Source: an uncultured Elusimicrobia bacterium
GTDB lineage: Bacteria; Elusimicrobiota; Elusimicrobia; UBA1565; UBA9628
Length of the DNA: 64,000 nucleotides
Direction of reading: 5' to 3'
NCBI GenBank assembly: GCA_964510095.1
Contig: CAZEAE010000001.1
Coordinates: forward strand, 1 to 64,000
Of this stretch, positions 3,502-26,319 are shown one piece after another. Numbering within the stretch: the stretch's first letter is position 1; each line of letters starts with the position of its first letter. Under the pieces are notes generated by a model. The model had not been told where the DNA came from. It was given only the letters and a program-made list of their open reading frames with translations, and searched no databases. A program made the position numbers and the translations under genes.

Positions 3502-3742
3502 CGCCGGAGCTCCGCCTCTAGATCGTCCAAGACGTACCCCTCTGCTTCTTGCTGGGGGCCGGACGCTCCAAGCGGAAGGCCAAAGCCGCCAGCACCGTCA
3601 CCACCGCCAGGCAGATCATCTCGCTCTCCAGGGTGCCTCCGTGCTGAGGCTAGTATAGGCCCGGCGCCCGGGATATCAAAGAGCTAAGCGGTTACACGCG
3701 GGTGTGATTTTCAGCACAAGACGCCGCTTCCTCCAGCCCCGG

Positions 3743-10195: not shown

Positions 10196-10255
10196 CTCCG
10201 CGTGATGATCCAGGATATCTCGGACCGAGGTACGTGAGAACTCGGGAGGCGAAGG

Positions 10256-11026
10256 CTACTTCCAGAACTGAGCCTTGTCCGCTAAACGGCCAAGGAAGGA
10301 ACGCTGGTTGCCCTTCGCGGCTTGCAGCGCCGCGTCCCCTGGAGGGGCAGGCTCCGCGACGTCGGCTTGCGCGTTCCTAGGGGTCGACCTTGCCAGAGCA
10401 AGGCGTATCTTCCCGTCATGGCCCGCGGGGCTGCCTGACTGCGCAAGCACGCTCGGAGCGGGTTCGACCAGGGCTTGAGCTGTATTTTCCCCAGTAAAAA
10501 ACCCGTCCAGCGCCGCTTTCATCCCCTCCGGGGAATCGAGCGACAGCCCGATAGATGACAACTGCTTGCTGAGGGGAGCGATCGTGGTGGCGAAGGCCGC
10601 CCGCGCCTTAGGGTTGCCCTGAAAGGGCCGCAAGAAGGCCTGAAGATGATCGTTGACTTCGGCGCCGACAGGCGGCAGGCCTGCGTCCAATCGGATATCG
10701 CTAAAAAGCGCCTGCACCGCGGGCAGAGCCTCCGGCCGTTCGATCGCCTCGATAAGAAGCGCTCCCGCCGTGGCTTGGGTCGGCGTCACTTCCGGACCGA
10801 CCAAGCTTTTGGTCAGGGCTTGGGCCATCAATTGAGGAGAGCCGGCCAACGGAGTCAAGGCCAGGATCTGAGCATTGAGGTCCAGGGCAATCTTGGGCAA
10901 TTGCCCGGCCAAACCGGGACGTTCCGCGCGGATCCCGGAATTCCCGATCGATACCGCGGCGAAGGCCTGCGGGGCAAGAGAGCCGCTCAGTAAAAACAAC
11001 CACGCCGCTACCTTCAATAGGTTCAT
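10256..11026 (-). CDS. Secreted hypothetical protein
   Basis: Start MNLLKVAAWLFLLSGSLAPQAFAAV (signal peptide); Ala/Leu-rich, no recognisable domain. Confidence 0.4.
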   Translation of the reverse strand: MNLLKVAAWLFLLSGSLAPQAFAAVSIGNSGIRAERPGLAGQLPKIALDLNAQILALTPLAGSPQLMAQALTKSLVGPEVTPTQATAGALLIEAIERPEALPAVQALFSDIRLDAGLPPVGAEVNDHLQAFLRPFQGNPKARAAFATTIAPLSKQLSSIGLSLDSPEGMKAALDGFFTGENTAQALVEPAPSVLAQSGSPAGHDGKIRLALARSTPRNAQADVAEPAPPGDAALQAAKGNQRSFLGRLADKAQFWK

Positions 11027-11209
11027 GATGCTTTTATGTGAATCTCTCCTAAGTATTAAGCTGCGCCCCTCTTTTGTCAAGGCCCGCAGTCAAACCCGGT
11101 TTTTCATCGACCTCCGAAACACGCAACCCCGTTTCTGGAGCCGATGCCGCCGACCGCCTTCCCTTCCGCCTCAGGACTTGATCGCGGCCCAGGGTTACAA
11201 TACGATGAG

Positions 11210-13840
11210 ATGAGAAAAGCCTCTCGGCTGGTCCGAAAGTCCCTCCTGGGGTTGTCCTTGCTCCTCTTGCAGCCCTCGGCGTTCGCCGCCCCGGTCAAGA
11301 TCGACGAGGCAGGCCTCGGAGGAGAGATCATGTCCCTGGTGGGCGCGCGGCCCGAGCGCTTGCGCGACTACGCCGTCGCCATCGAAGACGGCCGCTTCGT
11401 CCGCCTGGACCGGCGGATGGGCAAGCCGCTTAAGCCGACCCGGTTCGCCGACCGCGCGGAGTTGGCGAAGATCGCCCGAGAGCTGCGCGACCTGGACCGC
11501 CGCTCGACGCAGAGCGACACGCGGCGCGACACGCAGATCGACCGCCAGGCCGCCGCGACGCTCGCCGCCATCCCCGCGCCCGAGGCCTGGAGGACAGGCG
11601 CGGCCCTGCTCTTCGACGGCGGCAGGCTTGAAGCCGAGACCAGCCTTCAGGGCGACTGGAGCGCGCGCGCGGATTTTGCCAACGGGCGGCTGCGGCGCTG
11701 GAATATGAAGAGCCCTTCCAGCGACACCGAAGTCGAGGTGGGAGACCTGGCCGCAGGCGGCTTGAGCCCCGCTCTAGGGTCAAGCCCGTACTGGAGCGTG
11801 ACCAAGGGGCATGCCGGCTCCGGCGACTGGCTGGATCACCAGTTCCGCGGCCAGGCCTCCTATGTGAACCTGGAGGCGCGGAATTTTCCCGAGGTCCCCG
11901 CGCCGCAATACCAGGGCGGCTTCACCAAGGAGTCCTATTACGTCTTCAGCGGCCTCGCCCAGGCCGGGCGGGCCTATCCCCTCTACGGTCCGGTGGACGC
12001 GGCCTGGAGCGCCCTCGGGGTTTTTCGCCGCACCCAAGCCTTCCCCAACGCCTCCTTCGATGAGAGCGTGGGGCTGCGGGCGAGGATAGGGCAGGATCAT
12101 TCGCTCGGGCTCTTCACCGGCGTCACCCAGGCCGTGGGCCTGCTCAGCGAGGACTGGGCCAACCGGGCCGTCTCGGGCTTGGAGCAACAGGCCGGCATGG
12201 AAAAAGCCCCGCATTCCAATATCTCCCTTTGGGGCCGGCTCCCCTGGCGCCAGGCCGACTACGCGGTGGACCTGGGGCGCCAGGACAACCCCATGACCGA
12301 GGTCTCCAGCCTCCGGGCCTCCTTGGGCGCGCCTGCCGGCGCGGGGCGGCTCTCCGTGTACGGGGCCGGGGAGACCGAGGTCGGCCGACGTATCGAGTTC
12401 GACCGCCGCCGCTCCAGCCTCGGCGCAAGCTGGGCTCCGGACGGCAGGACCCGTTGGTTCGCCGAGTACGGCCGGCAGGACTTTCGCTTTGGAGACGCCG
12501 AGGTAAAGAGCCGCCAGGTTATGGTCGGTCTTGAGCTCTCCGATAAATACCGCACCGGCGCCGGCGTCACATTAGAATCGAGCTTCGGGGGCCGTGAGAA
12601 GCTCACGGCCGGCGGCGCCGATTTCCAAGCCCTGGCCGGCCCCCTGGCCGCGGGGCTTTCCCAGCTCGAGACGGCCTTGAACCAGGCGCTGGCGGTCCTC
12701 GAGACGACGAACGAGGACCAGGCCTGGCTGTCCTTCACCGCTTACTATAACCACCTGCCGGCCGACACCCGCGCGGCCATCGAGGCGGAACTGGGGCCCG
12801 CCGACCGCGACGACTTCGACTTGCCCGCCTGGATCACGGTCATTCGCCAGGGGGCCGGCGGCCTAGCCCAAGCAAAAGCCCTGGTGGGAGACCCCGCCTT
12901 CCTCGATCGGACCTTCACGCGCTACGCCCGCGCCGCGCTGCAGAAGAGCATCGGCGAGACCGAACTGGAGGTCTTGGGCGCGCAAGTGCGCCTGACGCCC
13001 CCCGCCCTCCTCGCGCTGCTTCACGCCTACAGCCTCGGGGTCAGCCCCCTGCCGCCGGTGGGCCGCGACCTGCTCTCCGGCCCCCTAGACCAAAGGGTCC
13101 TCGACCAGATCAACAGGAAGTTCGGCAGCGCCTGTTCCGGAGATTTTAAGACCGTCTCCGCCTGCCTGATCGAGCACGTCCCCGCCGATAAAAAAGCGGC
13201 CCTCGAGGCGGCCTATGGCAAAGATTTGCCGATCGTCCTGGGCGACTCCATGGCCCTCATGGCCCAGGTCCTGCGCCGGGAGCTCAACGTCTTCCTTCTT
13301 TCCGCGATGCTGGCGGCCGAGAAGCTCGACGCGCTCAGCGTGGACCGCGGCCAGCGCCTCGGCGAGATGAACAAGGCGGCCCTGACGCGCTCCTTCGCCC
13401 TCCTAGACCAGCGCCGGCGCGCGGAAAGCGCGCCCCCGCGGGTCCTGGCGCGAGCCGAGGGCAGGCTCCGGGAAGAGCTGGCCCGGCAGGACGCCGACAT
13501 CGCCGGGCGGCTGCGCGAGCACGGCCCCAAGCTGCTGGCCAGCCTGGTCTCCCAACCCTCCTGGCCGAGCAACGTCTCGGTCAGCGTGCCCCAAGAGCAC
13601 TGGCCCGCCCTCTTGTCCCGATACGGCTCCGAGAGCCTGGCCCTCTTCCTGCGCCAGGCCGCCTCCAAGCTCGGGCAGAAGGCGGGATTCAGGATGGTTC
13701 GTTTGCGCCTTGAGTTCAAGAACGACCCCGACCTGGGCCTCTCTTTGACGCGCGGAGATATCCTGCGCCTCACGCTGCCGCCGCTGGGTCCCGGCCGCGA
13801 CCCCGCCTCCGCTCTAGAGGCGATCCTTTCGGCGCTTTGA
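11210..13840 (+). CDS. Large secreted hypothetical protein (~876 aa)
   Basis: Signal peptide MRKASRLVRKSLLGLSLLLLQPSAFAAP; the N-terminal half is Gly/Ser/aromatic-rich with alternating patterns compatible with beta strands, the C-terminal half is helical Ala/Leu-rich; no recognised domain. Confidence 0.5.
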   Translation: MRKASRLVRKSLLGLSLLLLQPSAFAAPVKIDEAGLGGEIMSLVGARPERLRDYAVAIEDGRFVRLDRRMGKPLKPTRFADRAELAKIARELRDLDRRSTQSDTRRDTQIDRQAAATLAAIPAPEAWRTGAALLFDGGRLEAETSLQGDWSARADFANGRLRRWNMKSPSSDTEVEVGDLAAGGLSPALGSSPYWSVTKGHAGSGDWLDHQFRGQASYVNLEARNFPEVPAPQYQGGFTKESYYVFSGLAQAGRAYPLYGPVDAAWSALGVFRRTQAFPNASFDESVGLRARIGQDHSLGLFTGVTQAVGLLSEDWANRAVSGLEQQAGMEKAPHSNISLWGRLPWRQADYAVDLGRQDNPMTEVSSLRASLGAPAGAGRLSVYGAGETEVGRRIEFDRRRSSLGASWAPDGRTRWFAEYGRQDFRFGDAEVKSRQVMVGLELSDKYRTGAGVTLESSFGGREKLTAGGADFQALAGPLAAGLSQLETALNQALAVLETTNEDQAWLSFTAYYNHLPADTRAAIEAELGPADRDDFDLPAWITVIRQGAGGLAQAKALVGDPAFLDRTFTRYARAALQKSIGETELEVLGAQVRLTPPALLALLHAYSLGVSPLPPVGRDLLSGPLDQRVLDQINRKFGSACSGDFKTVSACLIEHVPADKKAALEAAYGKDLPIVLGDSMALMAQVLRRELNVFLLSAMLAAEKLDALSVDRGQRLGEMNKAALTRSFALLDQRRRAESAPPRVLARAEGRLREELARQDADIAGRLREHGPKLLASLVSQPSWPSNVSVSVPQEHWPALLSRYGSESLALFLRQAASKLGQKAGFRMVRLRLEFKNDPDLGLSLTRGDILRLTLPPLGPGRDPASALEAILSAL

Positions 13841-13878
13841 TGTCCGACAAATCCGACCGACGCTGTGAGGTGAAAAAC

Positions 13879-14757
13879 ATGAGAAGCAATAGCTATCGGA
13901 GCCTGGCGGGAGTTCTCTGCCTGCTCGCCCATGCGAGCCTCGCTTGGGCCGGCGCGGGGTTCGGCCCGGGGCAAAACCTGGATGTCGAAGAGTTCTTGCG
14001 CGCAGCCCGGGCCGGCGACGGCCCGGCCGCGCCGCGGTCATGCCACCCCGGCCAAGCGGTCGAATGGGTGGCCATCAAAGGAGGGAAATTCGCGATGGGC
14101 GCCGACAACGGCGATAGCGATGCCAAGCCGCTCCACGAGGTCGCCATCAAAACCTTTGAGATGTCCAAGGCCTTGATTACCGTGGAGCAATACGCCGAGT
14201 GCGTAATCAAAGGCGGTTGTACGGAGCCGGGCGCCGGTGAGTACTGCAATTGGGGGAAGACGGACCGGCAGCGCCACCCGGTCAATTGCGTGGACTGGAA
14301 ACAGGCCGACCGGTACGCGAAATTCAAGGCCGCGCGGTTGCCCAGCGAGTCCGAGTGGGAGTACGCGGCGACCAGCGGGGGCAGGAACCAGAAATACCCT
14401 TGGGGCAACGAGGAGCCGAGCTGCGAGAGGGCCGTGATGCACGGCGAGGACGCCTATGGCTGCGACGGCGGGGGCACGATGCCGGTCTGCTCGAAGCCCG
14501 ACGGGAACACCGCGCAGGGTCTGTGCGACATGGCGGGAAACGTCTGGCAGTGGGTGCAGGACAAATATCAGGACTCGTATGCCGATGCGCCTGCGGACGG
14601 CAGCGCGTTTGAGGCTGCGGGCTCCTACCGGGTATGGCGTGGCGGCTCCTTCATCAACGGCGGCGCCAGGTACCTGCGGGCCAAATACCGCAACAACGTC
14701 GGCCCCGGCTACCGCGGCAGCCTCGTTGGCTTCCGCGTGGCGAGGTCGAGCCGTTGA
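13879..14757 (+). CDS. Secreted FGE-sulfatase (SUMF1/formylglycine-generating enzyme) domain protein
   Basis: Signal peptide then SUMF1 domain motifs: VTVEQYAECV, HPVNCVDWKQADRYAKFKAARLPSESEWEYAA, GNVWQWVQDKY, RVWRGGSFINGGARYLRAKYRN...GFRVARS. Confidence 0.75.
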   Translation: MRSNSYRSLAGVLCLLAHASLAWAGAGFGPGQNLDVEEFLRAARAGDGPAAPRSCHPGQAVEWVAIKGGKFAMGADNGDSDAKPLHEVAIKTFEMSKALITVEQYAECVIKGGCTEPGAGEYCNWGKTDRQRHPVNCVDWKQADRYAKFKAARLPSESEWEYAATSGGRNQKYPWGNEEPSCERAVMHGEDAYGCDGGGTMPVCSKPDGNTAQGLCDMAGNVWQWVQDKYQDSYADAPADGSAFEAAGSYRVWRGGSFINGGARYLRAKYRNNVGPGYRGSLVGFRVARSSR

Positions 14758-14821
14758 CCAGGAGGAAGGCCCGATTCGGGGCTGCCAGGAGTTCGATAAG
14801 ACTTGAAGCAAAGGAGAAACC

Positions 14822-15394
14822 ATGAAAAGCAAAAGGACGCCTTCACGACTCAAGATCGCGCTGGCCCTGACGGCGCTGTGCCTTTCCAGCCAGGCCGTCG
14901 CCGCGGAGACTTCCCTCGGCGAAGCCTTCGGCTCCGTGCAGGAAACGGTCCAAGCCGGCAAGACGCGGCTCAAGGCGACCCGCGCCGCCCCGGTGATCAT
15001 CGCCGAGCGCGGCGTATACAAGGCCTCGCTGACGACGCTTCTCGCCAAGCAGAAGTGCTCATCGCAATTCGAGCAGGTCAACGGCCGCGAGCCTCTGGCG
15101 ACGTGCGCCGTTGACGCCGGCGCGCCGGGAATGATCAAGCCCGTCGCGATCCTTCCCTTCGGGCTTCACGGCGAGTTCGACTCCGAGATCGGCGCGGGCT
15201 CAAAAGTGGGCTGCACCGGCGGCATCCGCGCAGACGCGGGCCTGGCGGGCCAGTTCCAGATATTCGTCGGCCTCAGCCCCTACAGCCTCGATTATTCGAA
15301 GGAGCAGTTCCAGCAGTGCTTCGAGTCCGTGATCTCCAAACTCCAGGCCAAGGACCGGGTCATGTACTTCGAAGCGGTTCAGACGGCGAAATGA
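14822..15394 (+). CDS. Secreted Cys-containing hypothetical protein, paralog family A (member 1)
   Basis: Signal peptide + conserved leader MKSKRTPSRLKIALALTALCLSSQAVAAETSLGEAFGSVQETVQAGKTRL shares ~85% nt identity with the 5' end of the 17336 gene; AAGGAGA RBS. Confidence 0.5.
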   Translation: MKSKRTPSRLKIALALTALCLSSQAVAAETSLGEAFGSVQETVQAGKTRLKATRAAPVIIAERGVYKASLTTLLAKQKCSSQFEQVNGREPLATCAVDAGAPGMIKPVAILPFGLHGEFDSEIGAGSKVGCTGGIRADAGLAGQFQIFVGLSPYSLDYSKEQFQQCFESVISKLQAKDRVMYFEAVQTAK

Positions 15395-17226
15395 GACGGC
15401 AGGCGATCCCGCTCGCGGCCTTGGCCGCGCTGCTGGCGGCGCTTGTCCTGCCCGTCGGCGCGGCGGACGGCCCGGCCGCCTCCGAGGTCGACCTGAGCGC
15501 GCGCTACCTGCCGGGCGGGTCATGGTTCGACGTGGGCGACCAGGGGCTGGCGATACGCCTGACAGGCCGCCCTGCCGTCAACGGGATCGTGGATTTCCGC
15601 GGCCAAGCGGGGGGCGCCTTGGCCTTCGAGGCCCGTCCGCTCTCTTCGGCGCAGCCGCCCTACGGCTACTCCTTGATCGGAAGCGCGGTCTCCGCGCGCG
15701 TCACGCGCTTCGGCGCGGGCTTCCTTCTAGAAGGCCAAGCGGGCGGCAGACCCCTGGCGCTGACCTTGGAGCGCCTGCGTGATCAAGACTACCAGGTCGT
15801 CGGCCGCGACGGAACGAAGCTCAAGGCCTGGATCACCCCCTCCCTGGCCCGCCTGCAAGGACGCTTCGAGCCGGAGAAAACATCGCGAGAGGGGCTGGCC
15901 GTCCTGGGCGCGGCGCTGGCCCTGATGTTCTCGGAGCAACCCGCGACGCCGCCTCGCGCCGCCTCCGACGCCGGCGCAAGCGAAGCAGCTCACGAACCCG
16001 CCGCTGCTTTGAATGAGAGCGTCTCCGCCGAGGGATTGGACTTGGACGCCCTTTTCGACGGCGTGAAGGACTTCCGCGGAGCCGTCCATGTCCACACCTC
16101 CCTCTCGCGCGACAGCCACGCCTCGCCGGAGGATCTGGTCAAAGCCGCCAATGAGATCGGCCTGGACTTCGTGATGACCTCCGATCACCGGGGGCAGGAC
16201 GTCTACGCGAAGTCGCTGCGCGGCATGCAAGGCGGCACTCTCTTCATACCCGGGATGGAAGTCATCCAAGGAGGCTCCGGGCTCTTCGGGAACTGCTGGC
16301 CGCCCTCGGTCTGCAACTCGGCTCTCTACTTGAACATGAGCGATTCGACCACGGTCACCAATCCAGATCTTGAGCGGCTGCTGACGGGCCCGCGCGGCCC
16401 GGAAGAACTTGTGATCGTGGCCCATCCCTTGGGTTTCAAAGATTGGGAGCACGGAAACATCGACGGGATGGAGATCTACGATCTGGCCGATGAGTTCATG
16501 CCGCCCTGCGTCTGGGGGACCTTGCGCAGGATCCTCGCGCTGGTCCTGCGGGCCGTCGGCGTCCGGTTGTTCGACCAGCCCACGGAGGACATCCTGATCG
16601 ACCGGCTGCAAAGGCCCGACGCGCACCTCAAGAAGTGGGACGAATTGCTCTCCCAGGGCCGGCACGTCGTGGGCGTCGGGGCTCCCGACGCCCATCAGAA
16701 CATGAGGATCTTCGGGGTGCAGCTGGACCGCTACGTCTTGACCCTGCGCTTTCCTTCCGTGCACATCCTGGCGCGCGAGCTGACCGCGCAGGCGCTGGCG
16801 GCCGCTCTCAAGAACGGCCGCAGCTACACCTCCTTCGACCTGCTCGCCGATCCCTCGGGGTTCAGATTCTCCGCCGCGGACGGCCAATCGTCGTATACAC
16901 AGGGAGACAGCATGCGCTTGGCCCGGGATCGGCCGGTGGTCTTCACCGCGATGTCGCCCCGCGAAGGCAGGATCAGGCTATTCAAGAACGGAGCGCTCGT
17001 CCAGGAGGCGTCCGGGGCACAGTTGGGCTTTACGACGCACGACCCCGGGGCGTATCGGGTCGAAGTCGAGCTGAACCTCAAAGGAGAATGGAAGCCTTGG
17101 ATCTTCTCGAACCCCATCTACTTGGAGCCAAGCCCCGAGACTCCAGAGCAGAAGGAATCGTCGCGGGACAACAACGCTTCGGCTGGCAGTCAAACCGGGC
17201 TTTCCAACGGCGGACCAAATGGATAG
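15391..17226 (+). CDS. Secreted PHP-domain (polymerase/histidinol phosphatase-like) metal-dependent phosphoesterase
   Basis: Start MRRQAIPLAALAALLAALVLPVGAADG overlaps the upstream stop (ATGA); PHP motif AVHVHTSLSRDSHASPEDLVKAANEIGLDFVMTSDHR. Confidence 0.6.
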   Translation: MRRQAIPLAALAALLAALVLPVGAADGPAASEVDLSARYLPGGSWFDVGDQGLAIRLTGRPAVNGIVDFRGQAGGALAFEARPLSSAQPPYGYSLIGSAVSARVTRFGAGFLLEGQAGGRPLALTLERLRDQDYQVVGRDGTKLKAWITPSLARLQGRFEPEKTSREGLAVLGAALALMFSEQPATPPRAASDAGASEAAHEPAAALNESVSAEGLDLDALFDGVKDFRGAVHVHTSLSRDSHASPEDLVKAANEIGLDFVMTSDHRGQDVYAKSLRGMQGGTLFIPGMEVIQGGSGLFGNCWPPSVCNSALYLNMSDSTTVTNPDLERLLTGPRGPEELVIVAHPLGFKDWEHGNIDGMEIYDLADEFMPPCVWGTLRRILALVLRAVGVRLFDQPTEDILIDRLQRPDAHLKKWDELLSQGRHVVGVGAPDAHQNMRIFGVQLDRYVLTLRFPSVHILARELTAQALAAALKNGRSYTSFDLLADPSGFRFSAADGQSSYTQGDSMRLARDRPVVFTAMSPREGRIRLFKNGALVQEASGAQLGFTTHDPGAYRVEVELNLKGEWKPWIFSNPIYLEPSPETPEQKESSRDNNASAGSQTGLSNGGPNG

Positions 17227-17335
17227 GGCCGTTTCTGGGGCCAATGCCAGGCTCGGCTTGCCCTTGCGCCTCAGGCCGAGCGCCCGACTTGGGGCTACAA
17301 TGAGTTCAAGAGAACTTGCCGGAAAAGGAGAAGCC

Positions 17336-18043
17336 ATGAAAAACAAGATGACGACTTCACGCCTCAAGATCGCGCTGGCCCTGACGGCGCTGTGCGCTTC
17401 CAGCTGGGCCGCCGCCGCGGAGACATCCCTCAGCGAAGCCTTCATCTCCCTGCAGGCGACGGTCCAAGCCGGCAGGGCGCGGCTCGACCAGGCCGCGGAA
17501 AGTTCGAAGCCCGCCGATATGGATGAGGACGACGTCGTCGTCACCCCTGGAATTGGCCATTGGGTCATGGACAAAGAAGACCGGGTCGGCCAAATCATCG
17601 AGATTTATCCAAACGGAGCCGCGCGTTATCAGGTCGGGAGCGACGTCTATATCTCGAACTATCTTTCCCTGGAGCAGGAACATGGAGACGGCGTGTGGAC
17701 CGGGGACACGGTGATCGATACCGACAATGAGATCGGAACGGTCATGCGCATCTTCTGCACGCGCAACCCGCGGGCTTTGCGCGATCCGGCCTGCCGCATC
17801 CAGTACAAGGTGAGAAACAGCTTCTATATCGCCAAAGGCGGCCTCAAGCGCGAGGTCCAGGAATATGTCAAGTCGGACTTCCCCCACCTCGGCCAGAAAG
17901 TTTCGCGAGGCTCCATGATCATCACCTCGGAGAACAATACGTTAACGGTGGATCAGCTCTTCTCGGACGGCCGCGTCCGCTTTCGCGTCGGCGCAAAATC
18001 AGAGATCCTGACCAGAGACCGCTACACCGCGGTCCAGCGTTGA
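17336..18043 (+). CDS. Secreted hypothetical protein, paralog family A (member 2), with three ~50-aa SH3-like repeats
   Basis: Leader MKNKMTTSRLKIALALTALCASSWAAAAETSLSEAFISLQATVQAGRARL matches family A; AAGGAGA RBS at 17324-17330; lower GC than surroundings. Confidence 0.5.
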   Translation: MKNKMTTSRLKIALALTALCASSWAAAAETSLSEAFISLQATVQAGRARLDQAAESSKPADMDEDDVVVTPGIGHWVMDKEDRVGQIIEIYPNGAARYQVGSDVYISNYLSLEQEHGDGVWTGDTVIDTDNEIGTVMRIFCTRNPRALRDPACRIQYKVRNSFYIAKGGLKREVQEYVKSDFPHLGQKVSRGSMIITSENNTLTVDQLFSDGRVRFRVGAKSEILTRDRYTAVQR

Positions 18044-18062
18044 ACGAAATGAAGGGGGGAAT

Positions 18063-18752
18063 ATGAAAAAATCGATATCCATCCGCCGCGCGGGGTCTTC
18101 CGTCGCCGTGATCCTAGGCGCCCTGGGGATTCTTGCCGCGACGAGCTCTGCTCAAAGCCCGGTCGAATGGAACGCCGGCGACCCGGTGATCCAGCTTCAG
18201 CAGCGCCTGGCCGAACAGCCCGCCGCGGCGACTCCACCGGCCAGGCCCGTGTCCATCAAACCCGAGGAGAAGGAGGTTAGCGGGATCGCCGACCCCGCTT
18301 TGACCGGAGACTACCGGCTCAAGGAGATCCGCGCCCAGGGCTTCCCTGAAAAACTGCGTTCGCATTACTGCCCCGACCGCCTCAGGGTCGTGCTCGACGA
18401 CCCTTCCCGCCGCGTCACCGTCTTCGGGAAGATGGACGACGAAGAGGGACCCGACGGCGAGTATCCTGGATACCGCCTCCTCAAGACTTTCTCCCCCTCT
18501 CGCCTGGTCAAGGAACCGGACGAGGTCGACCGCGGAGCCGTGACCGAAACGGCATTCGACGGCAAAGAGGTGCGCACCACCCATAACGGCTTCATGCTGC
18601 TGATCTTCAGCGTAGTGCATGAATACACCGGCCTGCGCCTGACCAGCCAGGACGTCTTGGTCTGGAAGCATTCCGAGACCGTCGTGCCGGCCGGCGCACT
18701 GCTCTCCAACGATGAAGACTACACCTGTCACTATGACAGAGCCGCCCGCTGA
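18063..18752 (+). CDS. Secreted hypothetical protein, paralog family B (member 1)
   Basis: MKKSISIRRAGSSVAVILGALGILAATSSAQSPVEWNAGDPVIQLQQRLAEQ shared with the 22001 gene (~88% nt identity over ~70 nt); RBS AAGGGGGG. Confidence 0.5.
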   Translation: MKKSISIRRAGSSVAVILGALGILAATSSAQSPVEWNAGDPVIQLQQRLAEQPAAATPPARPVSIKPEEKEVSGIADPALTGDYRLKEIRAQGFPEKLRSHYCPDRLRVVLDDPSRRVTVFGKMDDEEGPDGEYPGYRLLKTFSPSRLVKEPDEVDRGAVTETAFDGKEVRTTHNGFMLLIFSVVHEYTGLRLTSQDVLVWKHSETVVPAGALLSNDEDYTCHYDRAAR

Positions 18753-18767
18753 CGAAACACCTCGAGG

Positions 18768-20348
18768 TTGAACATGAAACGCTTGATGAACCCTGTCGCG
18801 CCGCTCCTGTCGCTCTCGTTGATTTTGACGGCCCCAGGCTTGGGCTGCTATGAAGCCGCGGCCGCCAGCTTCAAAGCCTTGCGAGTGGCGCCGCCGTCGA
18901 GCGCCATGAGCTTCAATCCGGGAGCTCTCGGCCGCTTCCCTGTCTCTTATCAGGGCGCCGGTTTGACCGCGCCGGGGTTTTTGACGCCGCTGCCCGTGAT
19001 CTCCGCGTTGACGCAGCCTGCCAGCATCCCCCAATTGAGCCCTTCGGCGCCTTCGGCGCTTGAGGGCGCGGCAGTCCCCGCGGCAATCGCGGCCACAGTC
19101 GAGGCGGGCCCCTCTTGGCAGCAGCGGCTTTCGGCCCTTGGTGAAGAGGTCAAGGGAATCGTTTCCTCCCGAGATGTCGGCGACCAAGCCGCGGTCCTGC
19201 GCCGCATATTCGAAGCCGGCCTAAGGCTTTCAGTCGCGCCCGAGACTCCCGAGGGCGCGCCAAAAGCCGCCTCCATTGGCTCTCCGCGGACGCGAAGGAT
19301 GCCCGAGGTCCTGGAGATATCCGAGTCCCGACGCCTCGACACGCTCGAAGGCCTATACGTCCGGACTCAGCCCCAAGGAGCGGTGGCCCCGCGCTCGTCG
19401 CCCCTCAAGAATAGGACCGCAGGAAAAATATCCCCGGAGCTCGATAGGATGCTGCGGCCCGAGAACGTCTATGACGTGACCGTCAGCTTGATAGCTCATC
19501 CTTCCGTGACCGAGGAAGACCAGCTGGTCTACTATTTGTCCGAGCTCGAAGGAGCCTCCTACCGGCACGACCACAGGAGCGGAAAGATATCCGTCCAGGG
19601 GATCAGCGGCCGGGATATCCGCGTCATCGCGGGCTTTCCCGCCGTGAGCCGCATCGCGGGGACATCCAAGGCGCCGACAGACGCCGCCACAAAAGGCCAG
19701 GGCGACAATCCGGAGGAAAAGACGCCCGTCATCTTCGTCGACAAGAAGCTCCGCCCGGACGTGGCCCTGCGCGTCCTGGAAGGCGCCGAACGGAACGACT
19801 TGGCGGCGCTCGACGGCAAAATCAATATCACCGTCGAAATCCGATCCAACCCGCGCAACCCCATGATCCTGATGAAGGGCGCCAACGGCTTTAGGACGAT
19901 GTTCTATCTGCACGAGGCCGGGGAGATGATCCGCGAACTGCAGTTTCGTTGGCACAAGCCTTCGACCTGGCTCCCGCGCGATGCCGACCCCGACAAGATG
20001 GACGCCGCCGAGCAGATGGACCTGGTGATCGCTTACGCGAAGGAAGCGTTCAAAGGGATCGTTTCCCGGGAAGGCAAGCCGAAAACGCCTTCAGAAAACT
20101 CCGGAATCTCCGGACTCTCGACAAAGAACGTCGTGCTGACGCTGACCGGACTCCTTAGCATAACCGGTCTCTTGGGCACATTGGGAATATTGACCGGGTT
20201 TTTCGCCTCCCTCCTGCCCCAAGTCCCTATTGAAGTCGCAGATTACATCTATGCCGTCAGCGGCAAGGCTCTCATAGGAGTGGCGGCCGGGACGGTTACT
20301 CTGGCCCTAGCGGGCATAGCCGCCTACCTTCTCTGGGCAAGAGAGTAA
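18768..20348 (+). CDS. Exported hypothetical protein, paralog family C (member 1), C-terminal double TM anchor
   Basis: First ~150 aa (signal + LSLSLILTAPGLGCYEAAAASF...PPSSAMSFNPG.LGR.PVSYQGAGLTAPG...SWQQRLS.LG.E.K.IVSSRD.GDQAA) conserved with the 20354 gene; unique C-terminal domain ending in two hydrophobic helices. Confidence 0.5.
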   Translation: MNMKRLMNPVAPLLSLSLILTAPGLGCYEAAAASFKALRVAPPSSAMSFNPGALGRFPVSYQGAGLTAPGFLTPLPVISALTQPASIPQLSPSAPSALEGAAVPAAIAATVEAGPSWQQRLSALGEEVKGIVSSRDVGDQAAVLRRIFEAGLRLSVAPETPEGAPKAASIGSPRTRRMPEVLEISESRRLDTLEGLYVRTQPQGAVAPRSSPLKNRTAGKISPELDRMLRPENVYDVTVSLIAHPSVTEEDQLVYYLSELEGASYRHDHRSGKISVQGISGRDIRVIAGFPAVSRIAGTSKAPTDAATKGQGDNPEEKTPVIFVDKKLRPDVALRVLEGAERNDLAALDGKINITVEIRSNPRNPMILMKGANGFRTMFYLHEAGEMIRELQFRWHKPSTWLPRDADPDKMDAAEQMDLVIAYAKEAFKGIVSREGKPKTPSENSGISGLSTKNVVLTLTGLLSITGLLGTLGILTGFFASLLPQVPIEVADYIYAVSGKALIGVAAGTVTLALAGIAAYLLWARE

Positions 20349-20353
20349 AAACC

Positions 20354-21811
20354 ATGAGACTCCTAATGAAGCCCATCGCGCCGCTCCTGTCGCTCTCCTT
20401 GATCCTGACGGCTCCGGGCTTGAGCTGCTTTGAAGCGGCGGCTGCCAGTTTCAATATCGTGAGGGTGACGCCGCCGTCCAGCGCCATGAGCTTCAATCCG
20501 GGATCGCTCGGACGCCTCCCTGTCTCTTACCAGGGCGCAGGTTTGACCGCGCCGGGGCTTTTGCCCCCGCCGTCCTTAACCTCCGCGCTAACGCTGCCTA
20601 GAGGCTATCCCCAATCAAGCGCCACGGCGCTCCCGACGCTTGCGGGCGCGGCCGCCCCCGCGGCGGTCCCCGCCGCAGTCGAGCCCGGAGCCTCCTGGCA
20701 ACAGCGGCTCTCCTCTCTTGGAGACGAGATCAAGGCAATCGTTTCCTCCCGGGATATCGGCGACCAAGCCGCGGGCCTGGGCCGCATCTTCGAAGCCGAC
20801 CGAATACTTTCAGCCACGACGCCAGGAGAAGGGGGCTTTGTGCCCGCAACCCGCAAGGCAGCAAGCGGCCTGAAGACGCCCAAGGCCGCCGCTGGCGGCG
20901 CAGGCCAGATCTCCCCGGAGGGAATGCGCGAGCACCGCTTCGAAGCCCTCATGGACGAGCGCGCCGAACGATATCGATCCGCTCACGCCCGGCTCGAATT
21001 CCTAAGCGGACACGCGAACGGCCTGAGCTCCGCGCTGGTGTCGCACATGGATTGGATGCTGCTTCCGATAGTCGGCTTCACGCTGGCGTGGAACATGCCC
21101 GTCTTGGCGGCCGTCGCGCTCCTGACGTTAGCCGCGACCGCAGCCCGATCCTACGCGCTGTACAAGGTCGCCGACCGCATCGGAGGCTTGTACGAGTCCT
21201 GGGGCCAGGGGCTGCAATCACTGCTTCGCTTGGAGCCTTCCTTGGATGGATCGGAGAAGGCACGCCTGGCCCAGGGAATGTACGACCTGCTGAGCTTCCC
21301 GCGCCGCGTCAGGGTTTTCGGAAGATACTACCCCATAAGCGTCGACGAGAACTGGCATCGCTGGGCCTCGATATTCCGGACTCATCTCGCCTCATTCCTA
21401 GACGACAGAAGCAGGCGAGAGTTGGTCCGATTGAGTTTTGAGCGCTCTCAGTACGCTCTCGGAAGGATCAGCCAACGCGACACCACGGACGCGAACGCCT
21501 ATTTTTCAGTTTTGATGCCTCTGCGGCTGCATACCCTGCTTAACGAACGGCAAAAAAAAGACTCTATCGAGTCCATGCTCGAGTTCTATGAGAGGGCGCT
21601 CTGGGTCCAGGGCTTCACCTACCCGATGGATGGCCAGGGCTTCGACGAGGTCGATCAAATGCTGCGCGACCGGCAGATACCGCGCGAATCAATCCGAAGC
21701 TTTTACCCCAGGTTCTACGCCTTGCTCGACCGGCAGCCATTCTTGGAGAGCCGGCCGTTACTGCTTAAGGTATTGAACCGCATGCGCGAGAACTTTAAGG
21801 AAAAGATATGA
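20354..21811 (+). CDS. Exported hypothetical protein, paralog family C (member 2), with internal TM hairpin and unique C-terminal domain
   Basis: N-terminal 150 aa paralogous to the 18768 gene; its own C-terminal ~230-aa domain is unrelated to member 1. Confidence 0.5.
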   Translation: MRLLMKPIAPLLSLSLILTAPGLSCFEAAAASFNIVRVTPPSSAMSFNPGSLGRLPVSYQGAGLTAPGLLPPPSLTSALTLPRGYPQSSATALPTLAGAAAPAAVPAAVEPGASWQQRLSSLGDEIKAIVSSRDIGDQAAGLGRIFEADRILSATTPGEGGFVPATRKAASGLKTPKAAAGGAGQISPEGMREHRFEALMDERAERYRSAHARLEFLSGHANGLSSALVSHMDWMLLPIVGFTLAWNMPVLAAVALLTLAATAARSYALYKVADRIGGLYESWGQGLQSLLRLEPSLDGSEKARLAQGMYDLLSFPRRVRVFGRYYPISVDENWHRWASIFRTHLASFLDDRSRRELVRLSFERSQYALGRISQRDTTDANAYFSVLMPLRLHTLLNERQKKDSIESMLEFYERALWVQGFTYPMDGQGFDEVDQMLRDRQIPRESIRSFYPRFYALLDRQPFLESRPLLLKVLNRMRENFKEKI

Positions 21812-21981
21812 AGAAGACGATCTTGATGCGCCGCGGCGGGGTCGGCCCAGACAAGAAATCGGGCCTGTCAAACCCTGTTTTTCAGCGACCGTCGGAATGC
21901 ATAACGGCGCTTCTGGAGCCAATGCCGCGCGCCGCCTTACCCGCAGCCCCAGGCCGAGAACCCGACATGGGATTACACTGA
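21808..21981 (+). pseudogene. Remnant 5' end of a family-B gene (MKKTILMRRGG...) fused to the conserved upstream element
   Basis: ATG overlapping the stop of the 20354 gene (ATGA); first ~35 nt match the family-B starts (atgaaaaagatgatcttgacgcgccgcg / atgaaaaaatcgatatccatccgccgcg), then diverges into non-coding-like sequence; 57 codons. Confidence 0.3.
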
Positions 21982-22000
21982 GGATATGAAAGGAGAAGAT

Positions 22001-22807
22001 ATGAAAAAGATGATCTTGACGCGCCGCGCCGGGCTTCCCGTTGCGCTGATACTCTGTACGTTGGGGACCATGGCCGCGACGGGCTCGGCCCAGAGCCCGG
22101 TCGACTGGAATTCCGGCGACCCCGTGCTCCAGCTTCATCAGCGCCTGGCCGAACAGACGCCGGCCGCCGTCTCACCCACCGGCGCGGCGGTGCTGGAAAC
22201 GGGACGCCCCGTGCTTGATCTCGTGAACAAAGTCGCCGGGTTGTATATGGGAGACAAGAACCCCGACACCGCCGTTCTAGAACCCGACCGCCGCAAGAAT
22301 CAACTGAGAGTCTCCTCGTGGCTTCAGAAGAAGTCCGAGATCCGAGCGGAAATCCTTGAGCCCGTTGGAATCAAAAAAGGAGACGCGATTTTAGTTTATG
22401 ATAAAATCGCGCCTTTATCCTCCAAGATCCTGGGGGTTTATGAAGAAGGTTACCTCTATTTCGAGGGACGAAGCCGCTGGGTCGCCACTTCTGATTACTC
22501 AGACACCACGGCTCCGACCTATGTCATCAAGAAAGCTGAGGACATCTTCCTCGAAGTCGGCGAGATCGATGGCATGCGGGCGGGGCAGGCCGTCTGCTTG
22601 AAGGAAGACCATGACTCCGGTGGAGACAAATTCAAGGCAGGAAAAAAAGGAAAGATCGAGCATGTTTTCTCGAACGGCGTCGCTGAAGCCTCCTTCAGCC
22701 CCCCGCTGAATATCGTTCGATTGCCCTTGGCTTTTTTGGGGATGAAAGAGAGTCTTTTTTTGAAGATCGCGGATTTGAAAGACTGTTCAACCAGGAGGAA
22801 AAAATGA
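22001..22807 (+). CDS. Secreted hypothetical protein, paralog family B (member 2), SH3-like repeats
   Basis: AAGGAG RBS 6 nt before ATG 22001 (the ORF track start at 21986 includes the RBS); leader MKKMILTRRAGLPVALILCTLGTMAATGSAQSPVDWNSGDPVLQLHQRLAEQ; the body is ~50% GC. Confidence 0.5.
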   Translation: MKKMILTRRAGLPVALILCTLGTMAATGSAQSPVDWNSGDPVLQLHQRLAEQTPAAVSPTGAAVLETGRPVLDLVNKVAGLYMGDKNPDTAVLEPDRRKNQLRVSSWLQKKSEIRAEILEPVGIKKGDAILVYDKIAPLSSKILGVYEEGYLYFEGRSRWVATSDYSDTTAPTYVIKKAEDIFLEVGEIDGMRAGQAVCLKEDHDSGGDKFKAGKKGKIEHVFSNGVAEASFSPPLNIVRLPLAFLGMKESLFLKIADLKDCSTRRKK

Positions 22808-23436
22808 AACGCCAGGAACATAGCCCCCTATTGTCCGCCGGTCTGAGTCTGCTGCTCCTCTCCGCGGCGGGCAAACCGCTCAGCGCGGCAAGCCTCGCGC
22901 CGGCCCCGCTGGAAGCCTCCCTGGAGGCCGCGTTCGCCCAGGCGCGCGTCGCCGTCGCCGACGCCGCGATCAAGGATTTCTCGGACGCCGACGCCCTGGC
23001 TTCGGCCGCCGGCGTCTGGGTCATGCGCCTGCGCGCCGACGCCAATGCCCTTGCCGCCCGGGCCCAAGCGCGTCCGGCCGACCCGGCCCTGGGCCGGGAG
23101 CTTCAGGCCCTGGAAGACCACACGCAGGACCTGGATTCCGATTTAGCCGGGCTCGACCGCGACCTGAGGGGGCTCATCGCGCGGGCGCCGGCGCTCATTT
23201 CCATCAAAGACCGCGTCTCCTTCCTTCCGGACATGATCTTCGCCGCGCGTAGCAGCCTCTGGCTCGCCTGGCAGGAGGCGTTCCCCCGAGCCGAGGTCTT
23301 CCGCCGGTCGGATCTGGCGACCTCCTTCGCGCGCTTCCAACGCGCGCTCGAGCACGCCGAGGCCGCCGCCCAGAAATGCGAGGAGTCCGCCCTAGAGCTC
23401 AAACACGCGGTGGACGCGGCGTCCCGCGGGCGCTGA
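22804..23436 (+). CDS. Secreted Ala-rich helical hypothetical protein
   Basis: Signal peptide LLSAGLSLLLLSAAGKPLSAASLA; ATGA overlap with the upstream gene; coiled-coil-like composition. Confidence 0.4.
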   Translation: MKRQEHSPLLSAGLSLLLLSAAGKPLSAASLAPAPLEASLEAAFAQARVAVADAAIKDFSDADALASAAGVWVMRLRADANALAARAQARPADPALGRELQALEDHTQDLDSDLAGLDRDLRGLIARAPALISIKDRVSFLPDMIFAARSSLWLAWQEAFPRAEVFRRSDLATSFARFQRALEHAEAAAQKCEESALELKHAVDAASRGR

Positions 23437-23443
23437 CCCCATC

Positions 23444-23800
23444 ATGCGCGCTCTCATCGTAGACGACGACGTAAACGTCGCCAAGATCCTGCGGCGGCAT
23501 TTGACCGCGTGGGGTTGGGAGACCGACGTAAGCACCACCGTGGCCGACGCTATCATGCTCTTCAAGGAAGGCCGGTATGACCTAGCGCTTTGCGACGTGG
23601 ACTTGCCGGACGGCGACGGTATATCCTTGGCCAGTGTCTTTCTAGGGGCTTTGCCGTCGCTGTCGGTCATCATCGCTTCCGGCGATCCCAAGAATCTGGA
23701 ACGCGCCCAAGAAGCCGGTTTCGCGCGCTGCCTCGAGAAGCCTTTTTCTCTGGAGAATCTCAAAGCCTTGCTCGAAGAAGCCCTGAAGGGCCGGCTGTAA
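23444..23800 (+). CDS. Stand-alone response-regulator receiver (CheY-like) protein
   Basis: MRALIVDDDVNVAKILRRHL...LALCDVDLPDGDGISLA with the phospho-acceptor Asp context (LCDVDLPDGDG); 118 aa, no output domain. Confidence 0.8.
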   Translation: MRALIVDDDVNVAKILRRHLTAWGWETDVSTTVADAIMLFKEGRYDLALCDVDLPDGDGISLASVFLGALPSLSVIIASGDPKNLERAQEAGFARCLEKPFSLENLKALLEEALKGRL

Positions 23801-23828
23801 TGACGTATACTTTCCCGGAGAGCGTCCC

Positions 23829-24698
23829 GTGACCAATAAGCCGATGGCCTTCGCCGCCGTCCTCACCCAGTTCAGAAAGGAGGCCGGCTACTCCTCCGCC
23901 CGCGACTTTTATAGGGCCGTCGGAGCCCAGGGCACCTTCGGCTGCACCTACGCGCAATACCTCAACATCGAGGCGGGCCGCTCGACGCCGAAGCCCACCC
24001 TGGTCCGCAAGATCATGGCCCTGCTGGAACTCTTCCCCCGCGACGCCAAGGGCCGCGAGTTCATCACCGCCTATTTCAGGGCGCTGCTCAAGGATGAAGA
24101 TTTTTTCGAACTGGCCCTTCAGGCCCTCTCGGGGGGGCCTTCGGCGCAGGGACAGGACGACGCGCCATTGAGCCAGGCCCTGAAGACAAGCGTCGCGCTA
24201 AAACAGGTCTGGCTGACCGACAAGCAAGTCGCCGTGATCGAGGGCGACCGGACCGCCTACTGGTGTTTCGAGGTTTTTTGCAATGACGGCCGGGACTGGG
24301 GAACGCTGGAGCTTTCCCACCTGCTCGGCCACAATGTGAAGGCGATCTCGGCGGCTCTTAAAAAACTACAAAAAGCCGCTCTGATCGTGGCGGCCCCGGA
24401 TGGGCGCTACCGTTGCTTTGCCAAGGACAAGATCCTCGCTTTCCCCCGGAAGGACATGTTCCTCCCGGAGAACATCGACCGCGCGCGCGGCTATCTGGAG
24501 GAGATGGCGCAAAGCCGCGGCCGCTTCGAGCTGTACCAAAACCTCAGCCTGCGCGCTTCCTCGAAACGTCTCAAGCAATACTACCCCCACCTGGCCCAAA
24601 GCGTCGCCGGCGCCAATATCTATTCGAGCCCGGAAAAGGGCGACGACACGGGCTTCTACGTGATCGAGACCATCGTCCGCAGGCTGTTCGACTTCTAA
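23829..24698 (+). CDS. HTH-domain protein (XRE-like N-terminus; resembles the TIGR02147-type paralogous family)
   Basis: N-terminal FRKEAGYSSARDFYRAVGAQGTFGCTYAQYLNIEAGRSTPKPTLVRKIMALL fits an HTH-XRE fold; the remaining ~200 aa have no recognised domain. Confidence 0.5.
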   Translation: MTNKPMAFAAVLTQFRKEAGYSSARDFYRAVGAQGTFGCTYAQYLNIEAGRSTPKPTLVRKIMALLELFPRDAKGREFITAYFRALLKDEDFFELALQALSGGPSAQGQDDAPLSQALKTSVALKQVWLTDKQVAVIEGDRTAYWCFEVFCNDGRDWGTLELSHLLGHNVKAISAALKKLQKAALIVAAPDGRYRCFAKDKILAFPRKDMFLPENIDRARGYLEEMAQSRGRFELYQNLSLRASSKRLKQYYPHLAQSVAGANIYSSPEKGDDTGFYVIETIVRRLFDF

Positions 24699-24699
24699 G

Positions 24700-25329
24700 A
24701 TGAAGCGCTGGCGAGAAAGTCTGGCGATGATCAGCCTTCTTATCCTGGCGATGGATGCATCCGCGGCCGGCGTCCCGGTGCGCGGCCCTCAGCCGGTCGT
24801 GCAGGCCGAACTGAGCTTCAGCCGCACCTGCGCCGACGGCACGCCCCGCTATGCGCTGGCCGATGTCTCGAAAGACCTCGGCCCCTCGCTCGATATCACC
24901 ACGGAAAAGAGCAAGATCGGCTATCTCTACGTCCTGGAGGCCGGCTACCGCCCCATCATGGACGCCGACCAACCCGGAGCGCCCATCTTCCTCAGCGACG
25001 CTTCGACCGGCAACCGCCTCCCTTTCGCCGTCCTGGACCCCAAGGACATCCCCCCTTGCAGGAGCGGGGGCGGCCGGGAATACGCGTCGCCGGTGCGCAT
25101 CCGGCTGGAGCCTTCGGTCCGAGCGGAGCTTGAGATCAAGCCTCGGACGGGGATCTTCCGGCCGGCCTGCTACAAGAACGTGACCACGGGCGCCTACAAG
25201 CTCGACCTCTGGAACATACTGACCCTCAAGCTGCCGGATCGCAAGATCGAGGTCAAAAGCGCCGACTCCGAATCCTTCCAGGATGAAGAAGAATGCCGTA
25301 GATTCTACGAGGCGATGAAAAGTCCTTAG
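24700..25329 (+). CDS. Secreted hypothetical protein
   Basis: Signal peptide MISLLILAMDASAAG; no recognised domain. Confidence 0.4.
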   Translation: MKRWRESLAMISLLILAMDASAAGVPVRGPQPVVQAELSFSRTCADGTPRYALADVSKDLGPSLDITTEKSKIGYLYVLEAGYRPIMDADQPGAPIFLSDASTGNRLPFAVLDPKDIPPCRSGGGREYASPVRIRLEPSVRAELEIKPRTGIFRPACYKNVTTGAYKLDLWNILTLKLPDRKIEVKSADSESFQDEEECRRFYEAMKSP

Positions 25330-25368
25330 GGCCCTTGATAATCCCGCCCTCCCGGTTATACTAGCCTT

Positions 25369-26319
25369 ATGCCGGTTCGATCCAGGCTTCTATGCGTCAT
25401 GTCTCTCTGTTCCATGGCTTTTCTCCTTGGGACACCGCGGATCTTCGCCGAGGGGACATCCATCCGACTCTGCGAGGAGGCCGGGGAGGGCAAAGACTGC
25501 CTCGGAAACCTCAAGAAGCCCGCCACGCCCTCCTCGAACCCCGCTCCCTGGCCGGAGAGCGTCGGCCGGAAGACTTGTCCCGCTGACTGGCTCCAGTCAC
25601 GCAAGGGCGGTTGCCTGACCCAGGTCACCACCGTCGATGGACAAAGAGGGTCGGCCTATGTCCATCCGGGAGGCTGGCTGGTCGATGCGCGGTGCTTCAG
25701 CGATAAGCGCTTCAAAGCCTCGGAGCTGCTGGCGGCGCTCGAACTGGTGCAGCGGAAGATCAGCCCGACGGCAGGCTTGGACAAAGGAGGCTGCCTCTCC
25801 AAGTTCAACCCGGAGTGGGGCGCGGAATTGGTCAATGCCTCCTGGGAGAAGGGCATCTACGTCGACTGCCCGCCGCTCGACCCCTCGGACTCCGAACCCT
25901 CCTGCGCCGCGCACGTCACCCAGGGAATCCGCGCTTCGATAGGCAGCCGCGGCTATCGCCGCGAGACCGAACTCTCCTTGCTGTCGCTCGAAAACGTCGC
26001 GGGCTGCATGGGCAGCGGGACCACGGGGCTTGCGGGCGTCCTGTTCCACGAGTTCCTGCACGCCGCCGGAGCCGACAACTATCCCACGGAGAAGCATAAC
26101 ACGGCCTGGCGGCTCCAAGACTACGTCTTCGTGTCCGACCGGGTGTATGGGACCGAGGCGCTCTGCTTCTTCGGCGTGGACGACGCGCGCAAGGACTTGG
26201 TCAACGTCCTGCAGTGCCGGCAGGCGGCCTCCTACCGCGCCATCGCCCCCCGCTTCGACCTCTGCCGGGGCTTCAGCACCTCTTTCACCGACATGCCCGC
26301 CAAATTCATCAAGCACTGA
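25369..26319 (+). CDS. Secreted Cys-rich protein with HExxH motif (putative zinc metallopeptidase)
   Basis: Signal peptide LLCVMSLCSMAFLLGTPRIFAEG; HEFLH at ~residue 225 (VLFHEFLHAAGADNYPTEKHNTAW); 14 Cys. Confidence 0.45.
   Translation: MPVRSRLLCVMSLCSMAFLLGTPRIFAEGTSIRLCEEAGEGKDCLGNLKKPATPSSNPAPWPESVGRKTCPADWLQSRKGGCLTQVTTVDGQRGSAYVHPGGWLVDARCFSDKRFKASELLAALELVQRKISPTAGLDKGGCLSKFNPEWGAELVNASWEKGIYVDCPPLDPSDSEPSCAAHVTQGIRASIGSRGYRRETELSLLSLENVAGCMGSGTTGLAGVLFHEFLHAAGADNYPTEKHNTAWRLQDYVFVSDRVYGTEALCFFGVDDARKDLVNVLQCRQAASYRAIAPRFDLCRGFSTSFTDMPAKFIKH

Follow-up and report, generated by a model that had tools for sequence, protein, structure and literature searches.

What is the start of a secreted-protein gene doing at the very end of another gene, directly in front of a second, complete gene of its own type? 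This question is raised by one locus in a 64,000-nucleotide (nt) stretch of DNA, called the window here, which is part of a 257-kb contig of an uncultured Elusimicrobiota bacterium from the Hainich groundwater well H51. The ATG at 21808-21810 overlaps the TGA (21809-21811) of A2, a family A gene of 485 amino acids (aa), and opens a 57-codon open reading frame (ORF) that begins with MKKTILMRRGG and stops ahead of the family B gene B2, whose own ATG stands behind the Shine-Dalgarno (SD) sequence AAGGAG. A previous reading of the DNA letters alone (the sequence-only reading) had pointed out these features, all of which lie where it placed them, and had taken the ORF for the remnant of a gene start. 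We conclude that the segment 21797-21851 is very probably a pseudogene stump, the decayed orphan of a portable B-type 5' module; this confidence covers its being a remnant, and not the direction of the event that produced it.

The stump matches the start of B2 (21990-22033) from 21797 to 21840 in 39 of 44 nt (88.6%), with E=8e-9 in a window-wide blastn search. A degenerate 33-nt pattern finds only these two places and has no match in 100 shuffles, so the similarity is far beyond chance. The best match is the start of a gene named X on the related contig L016 (41/44), and the corresponding start on the contig L019 gives 37/44, while the second family B gene of the window, B1, starting at 18063, is matched more weakly (30/44). 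The sequence-only reading had described about 35 nt in common with both family B starts, which applies well to B2 and less so to B1, and it had drawn the homology too short. The match begins 11 nt 5' of the ATG and includes the SD (AAGGAaAAGAT versus AAGGAGAAGAT), where a single G-to-A change is synonymous in the A2 frame (GAG to GAA). Codons 2, 4, and 7 (AAG, ACG, and ATG) are common to the stump and X.

A second homologous block follows at 21830-21851 (GCCGCGGCGGGGTCGGCCCAGA), aligning with B2 positions 22073-22094 in 20 of 22 nt (gapped alignment), a score reached by none of 2,000 shuffles. This block indicates a 50-nt internal deletion in the stump between GCCGCGNCGGG repeats, with the 11 nt at 21830-21840 being alignable to either flank. 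The deletion takes out the hydrophobic core of the signal peptide (the h-region, codons about 12 to 24) and shifts the frame, as the +1 frame of the block reads AAAGSAQT, which is a B-type signal-peptide c-region. B-type starts carry an AAGGAG-type SD 5 nt before the ATG, followed by MKK(T/M)(I/V)L(M/T)RRAG, a hydrophobic h-region in frame, and an in-frame c-region ...(T/S)(G/S)SAQ(S/T) leading into the protein body. The stump has the SD and the first codons of this series and lacks the in-frame h-region, the in-frame c-region, and the body. Its c-region is followed by about 10 nt of filler sequence, which lacks significant matches both in the window and at all related loci, and then by a promoter-like element.

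We propose that the stump sits in the ancestral place of the module, translationally coupled to the family A gene through the ATGA overlap, and that two lesions have disabled it. The first is the frameshifting loss of the hydrophobic core by a slippage-type deletion between the repeats, and the second would be the loss of the entire protein body, which would have brought the stump to within about 10 nt of the element that heads B2, a 210-aa gene, and a response regulator gene. Illegitimate recombination mediated by microhomology is the likely mechanism, acting in an array of tandem secreted-protein genes whose 5' modules are 75-90% identical.

The repeats concerned are short (44-55 nt) and GC-rich and the sequence is metagenome assembled, so one could think of a chance resemblance or of an assembly chimera formed from repeated 5' modules. 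We regard both as extremely improbable. The E value and the shuffles given above speak against chance, and L016, an independent relative, is collinear with the window across the junction. Furthermore, the junction region is 100% identical in five contigs, which represent four Hainich samples and both ENA and Logan assemblies, and this shows that it is not an assembly artefact.

The strongest support for a remnant comes from the same position in relatives, for which we compared about eight related contigs, including L006, L009, L010, L012/L013, L016, L017, and L019. On L016 (JGI 3300045502), positions 2701-3591 are collinear with 20953-21840 of the window at 84.7%, through the 3' end of the family A gene into the start of X. 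The L016 family A ortholog ends with ...MRENFKEKI-stop and has the same ATGA overlap, and X is a full-length, 240-aa secreted-protein gene from the overlapping ATG (MKKTVLMRRAGPSVALILWALGTMPCRAQT...; MKKTVLMRRAG...). An intact homolog is therefore present at the same position in a relative, and the stump itself combines a frameshifting deletion with truncation and shows no coding signature in its nonhomologous part, as is typical of a pseudogene. The sequence-only reading had suggested a comparison with related loci and held that a conserved full-length gene here would make the ORF an independent small protein. Such a gene exists in L016 and supports the remnant instead, since it has only the 5' module in common with the 57-codon ORF. 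We also considered the body of X as a split ortholog of the window gene 24727-25329 and rejected this, since their aa identity is only 39%, whereas true orthologs reach about 80%.

L019 is 96% identical to a downstream part of the window (23353-26152). It has one family A gene ending with KEKI-stop, then the start MKKAILMRRA fused to about codon 77 of the 210-aa gene, and neither the element nor B2. The fusion (MKKAILMRRA joined to DANAL...) has its junction at the microhomology ATGCGCC(T)GCGCGCCG, and the protein P0016 represents an independent, in-frame version of it. On L006, the family A gene ends with KEQDARKL-stop, the response regulator follows 3 nt later, and the B-type start is absent; its sequence ceases to be homologous to the window and L016 within the SD, at about 21802/21803. 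The states of these three contigs and of the window indicate that the A-adjacent B-type start is evidently old and has met four fates, namely, functional fusion, truncated fusion, stump, and complete loss. Judged by its position and its sequence, the stump is the ortholog of the A-adjacent gene starts of L016 and L019.

With regard to the 57-codon ORF as a whole, the authentic module is limited to codons 1 to about 8. The remainder runs out of frame through the c-region remnant and, past 21851, through the filler and the noncoding element to the first stop, which overlaps the last base of the TACACT box of the element. The GC contents at codon positions 1, 2, and 3 (GC1, GC2, and GC3) of the postmodule part are 0.67, 0.55, and 0.60, compared with a GC3 of 0.67-0.87 in the neighbouring genes. 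The 57-aa peptide has no Pfam or NCBIfam match and is a singleton cluster in a collection of about 15 billion proteins.

The ORF might still be functional, either as a small protein or as an upstream ORF bridging translation from A2 to B2 or regulating B2. Its intact ATG, usable SD, and ATGA overlap with A2 would agree with such a role, as would a stop only 19 nt before the B2 ATG, its prediction by a gene caller (one of those used), and a comparable signal-peptide mini-ORF on L012, which ends 23 nt before a family A ATG. We nevertheless consider a function improbable. Apart from its singleton status, the ORF shows no conservation past the module in L016, L019, or L006, each of which continues differently, nor homology there in any relative; the GC3 follows no coding-type pattern and the hydrophobic core is absent. 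The element sequence that it traverses is common to two other intergenic copies in the window, and at the copy ahead of the family C gene C2, the ORF that runs on into the gene lies in another frame. In addition, we estimate that about 46 stop-free codons arise by chance with a p of about 0.2 at the local GC content. The ORF is apparently an accidental read-through of noncoding DNA and not a gene, in agreement with the sequence-only reading that a remnant, rather than an independent small gene, lies here.

Whatever effect the stump has today is incidental and could come from residual translation of the 57 aa or from a contribution to a weak terminator hairpin. Such a terminator-like hairpin is found at the junction, with a minimum free energy of -17.3 kcal/mol (z=-1.7), a stability short of significance, and 11 of 200 shuffles fold as well. 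A consensus terminator and promoter scan gives nothing convincing at the junction of stump and element, and the other two element copies of the window have no matching hairpin. The putative terminator may end the C2-B1-A1-A2 transcript.

The element into which the ORF runs had been recognized by the sequence-only reading as a conserved upstream element, and this is borne out. Positions of about 21861-21982 are 69-71% identical to 11089-11213 and 17189-17349 (nhmmer E=5e-43 and 2e-27 for this copy), with a left edge at about 21860-21867. A profile search finds copies 5' of seven further gene starts in related contigs, ahead of various genes. The element is about 125-150 nt long and precedes genes of several unrelated families, and all 10 copies end with TAC(A/G)(A/C)T, of which T, A, C, and the final T are invariant. 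This box lies about 8-105 nt before the start codons and is directly followed by gene-specific sequence (5' untranslated region and SD). Its form, TAnnnT, and its spacing to the start codon are those of a sigma-70-type -10 hexamer, whereas the conserved sequence 17-19 nt 5' of the box is CCAGGC and not TTGACA-like, as a sigma-70-type -35 hexamer would be. A consensus scan finds no promoter at the element, and an Rfam scan of 10000-26000 at E<=1 gives no match. We describe the element as promoter-like, a possible promoter or regulatory region that would head three units of the window: the 876-aa gene to the PHP-like gene, C2-B1-A1-A2, and B2 with the 210-aa gene, the response regulator, and beyond.

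Two other interpretations of the element were rejected. RNAalifold predicts stems for six copies from relatives and for the three window copies, with unfavourable covariation terms (+1.9 and +2.8 kcal/mol), which, together with the lack of an Rfam match, argues against a structured cis-regulatory RNA. A mini-ORF of 19-20 codons from the conserved ATGCC motif has no ATG or a shifted frame in relatives. The three window copies share one 5' half (GTCAAACC..TTTTTCA..TTCTGGAGCCAATGCC), and the copies of the relatives all share a different one (GGTCTCA..TACCAACTGC..GATGAGACGGCC), which suggests concerted evolution within a genome or a compensated structure.

The relatives also document how portable the modules are. 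The B-type module heads at least four unrelated bodies, namely, those of the B1 type, B2, P0002, and X. In L016 and L017, the same mature protein X (96% nt identity) stands behind different signal peptides, the B-type one in L016 and MKRKKILILAAVVLTSA in L017. The contig L017 continues L006, with which it overlaps by 27 nt and forms a single uninterrupted receiver-domain ORF. A precise deletion whose ends are the ATGAA motifs of B1 and A accounts for the lack of B1 in L016 (L016 1488-1503 versus L006 6338-7013). In both L006 (5072-5647) and L016 (213-809), an in-frame fusion joins the signal-peptide start of an FGE-sulfatase gene to the C1 body; the two genes are separate in the window (13879-15394). 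A second, independent stump is present on L012/L013 (L012 4746-4855), where behind an element there come a C-type SD and a GTG start, from which a signal peptide is read to a stop after 36 codons; this is the mini-ORF mentioned above. The gene order element-C2-B1-A, which the window and L006 share, and the order element-C2-A of L016 show that this stump arose by deletion of bodies. Taken together, the locus evidently shows gene-boundary-precise loss, fusion, and re-heading via shared SD/signal-peptide modules and the promoter-like element. As a separate observation, the L006 ortholog of B1 (P0005, 6338-6991) lacks signal-peptide codons 7-19 through an in-frame deletion (MKKMIL joined to WALATMAATGS), a further lesion in the GC-rich B-type stretch where the window stump and L019 are also broken.

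The sequence-only reading had spoken of active modular shuffling. Shuffling is supported by the four unrelated bodies and by the deletions, fusions, and swaps; the word active is not, given the five identical Hainich contigs, among which no population variants are seen across the region.

How the stump lost its gene is a separate question. The route that we favour, at about even confidence, is a deletion that removed the body belonging to the stump and stopped at the edge of the promoter-like element beyond it. It is favoured because all other rearrangements in relatives, including the L012 stump, are deletions or fusions. The sequence-only reading had instead suggested a 5' cassette inserted in front of an existing gene, a preference that we do not share, as loss of the stump's own body fits at least as well, considering the closer match to X than to B2 and the existence of the L012 stump. 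In a possible, less probable, version of such an insertion, B2 was once coupled to A2 at 21808, and filler, element, and a fresh B-type SD/signal-peptide module were recombined in, the left junction being illegitimate and the right one homologous inside the module, with the old start left as the scar. The B2 module shares 89-89.5% identity with the modules next to C2 in L009 and L010 but only 75% with that of B1 (18046-18246), which is compatible with an imported module, and L019 has the 210-aa gene just 3' of the A-adjacent start. Against this, an insertion requires a donor with element and B module, which is seen nowhere, and one illegitimate and one homologous crossover plus the later 50-nt deletion; moreover, the element copies are only about 70% identical and give no sign of a recently mobile cassette.

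Several observations weigh against the decayed stump as we describe it. With an intact ATG and an SD that has lost little of its strength, translation of the stump is possible. The ORF stop lies 8 nt before the SD of B2, where coupling is possible in principle and for which we estimate a chance probability of about 0.05. The ancestral order predicted by the deletion route (A, full-length gene, element, B2) is found in no relative, so the route is inferred by analogy. Finally, in every relative, B-type modules stand directly behind another gene without an element (at 0-20 nt in L009, L010, L006, and L016, and likewise for B1 in the window), which makes the element of B2 look derived and fits the insertion.

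A more far-reaching idea would be that the family A, B, and C modules and the element form a dedicated system for diversifying secreted proteins, using 5' modules as recombination handles that re-pair leaders, promoters, and bodies. We think this unlikely, and equally so its corollary that the stumps (21797-21851 and the L012 mini-ORF) are regular by-products or have been retained as ORFs for coupling, with their ends about 20 nt short of the following start.

Further relatives were sought in three ways. The degenerate B-start pattern has 0 matches in metagenome contigs, a protein scan guided by the family A alignment confirmed 0 of 379 pattern matches, and an element-pattern scan of genome contigs returns only the L012 contig, which was already in the set. 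The coordinates of the features are collected in Table 1.

Table 1. Features of the stump locus in the window and element copies in related contigs
Feature	Positions	Strand	Description
Stump block 1	21797-21829	+	Weakened SD AAGGAA 21797-21802, ATG 21808, first 7-8 codons MKKTILMR
Stump block 2	21830-21851	+	c-region homolog of B2 22073-22094, out of frame
Filler	21852-21860		CAAGAAATC, unique, between stump and element
57-codon ORF	21808-21981	+	Opens MKKTILMRRGG..., stop codon 21979-21981
Terminator-like hairpin	21836-21882	+	Stump end, filler, and element left edge, then TTTTT 21878-21882
Element copy 1	11081-11213	+	Promoter-like; ahead of 876-aa gene
Element copy 2	17181-17335	+	Promoter-like; ahead of C2 (ATG 17336), overlaps 3' end of PHP-like gene
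Element copy 3	21861-21982	+	Promoter-like; TACACT box 21974-21979, 22 nt before B2 ATG
B1	18046-18752	+	Gene 18063-18752, module 18046-18246; 20 nt after C2 stop, no element
A2	20354-21811	+	Family A, 485 aa; gene calls, orthologs P0007-P0010
B2 5' module	21983-22190	+	SD AAGGAG 21990-21995, ATG 22001, signal peptide to about 22094
B2	22001-22807	+	268 aa, functional gene 3' of stump; gene calls
Element copies in L006	2410-2555, 4925-5077
Element copy in L012	4594-4750
Element copies in L014	3713-3862, 8544-8698
Element copy in L016	96-248
Element copy in L008	906-1033

None of the proteins of the locus is assignable to a family or fold. Pfam and NCBIfam searches give no match for the A, B, C, 210-aa, 289-aa, 876-aa, and X proteins, and only a subthreshold PHP match for the 611-aa gene, and NCBI names the B2 and A2 proteins "MAG: Elusimicrobiota bacterium". 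The conserved N-terminal motif of B2 extends to about 22190; its homologs share only the N-terminal 15-32% of the protein, and the body is unique to the lineage. B2 has the lowest GC3 of the locus (0.67), and B2 and the 3' part of A2 have its lowest GC content (0.586 per kb). A near-perfect AT-rich palindrome (CGCGATTTTAGTTTATGATAAAATCGCG), terminator-like on both strands, lies at 22381-22414 inside the B2 coding region. The structure model of B2 has a predicted local distance difference test (pLDDT) score of 33. The A2 model (mean pLDDT, 48.6) contains a confident all-helical C-terminal domain, for which Foldseek against the PDB gives weak 14-3-3 and helical-repeat matches that are uninformative (E>=0.06; template modelling score, <0.35).

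A1 (18774-20348) and A2 have the same N-terminal module, with 80% nt identity over about 300-466 nt. The relatives have a single family A gene (567-799 aa in complete copies), which combines an A1-type middle with an A2-type C-terminal domain and is located at 7013-9412 in L006, 1499-3562 in L016, and 2-1459 in L019.

The flanks of the locus are ordinary chromosome, with pho/ppk genes, hut genes, and PEPCK. Two repeat-rich genes lie elsewhere in the window. A 702-aa SPFH/Band 7 gene (6052-8160) has four tandem repeats of about 222-228 nt at 6458-7206 with 61-70% identity. On the minus strand, an ORF of >5,185 codons (48437-63994) runs off the window end and has internal repeats with a 1,674-nt period (49137-49939 versus 50811-51613, 73-74% identity).

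For annotation, the 57-codon ORF, which was called by one pipeline, should not be entered as a protein. The stump is better seen as a dated breakpoint in an orphan secreted-protein locus of an uncultured groundwater Elusimicrobiota lineage. If the proteins are surface or effector proteins, the locus would offer a natural example of new secreted proteins being built from a reusable export module. To our knowledge, evolution by a promoter or leader plus variable bodies has not been described before in this phylum.

Outside of the phylum, the closest parallel in arrangement is the erp family (ospE/ospF/elp, with the "upstream homology box") of Borrelia burgdorferi, where one promoter/leader/localization sequence is described as having been recombined onto many diverse bodies (PMC10016077). 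Here, similarly, one SD and signal-peptide module is found on at least four unrelated bodies. The genes of our locus are chromosomal and tandem, while the erp genes reside on cp32 prophages, and the signal peptides here are not lipoprotein leaders, as no lipobox cysteine is seen at the cleavage site. The element also differs in not being tied to the leader, since it precedes several gene families. The likeness concerns the sequence arrangement.

The vsp, vlp, and vsa loci of Mycoplasma likewise have conserved 5' regions (promoter or leader) with divergent bodies, and recombination in the 5' regions gives chimeras and silent remnants. These loci use site-specific recombinases and defined recombination sites and switch at high frequency. 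At the Elusimicrobiota locus, by contrast, the microhomologies at the junctions differ from one another, no integrase, invertase, or transposase is found among the window proteins scanned, and the five Hainich contigs are identical. The recombinase, defined sites, and population variants of programmed cassette switching are thus absent from the window proteins and the five assemblies.

The nearest relatives of the stump are the truncated 5' gene remnants of bacterial multigene arrays. It is unlike the usual ones in keeping a usable SD and ATG, which also encode the last codons of the upstream gene (...K-E-K-I-stop of A2), and in ending almost at the edge of the next promoter-like element. It is like them in its partial homology to functional starts, its frameshifting deletion between short repeats, its missing body, and its intact positional ortholog. 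By itself, it is an ordinary pseudogene fragment of a well-known kind, the truncated remnants that recombining multigene arrays leave behind.

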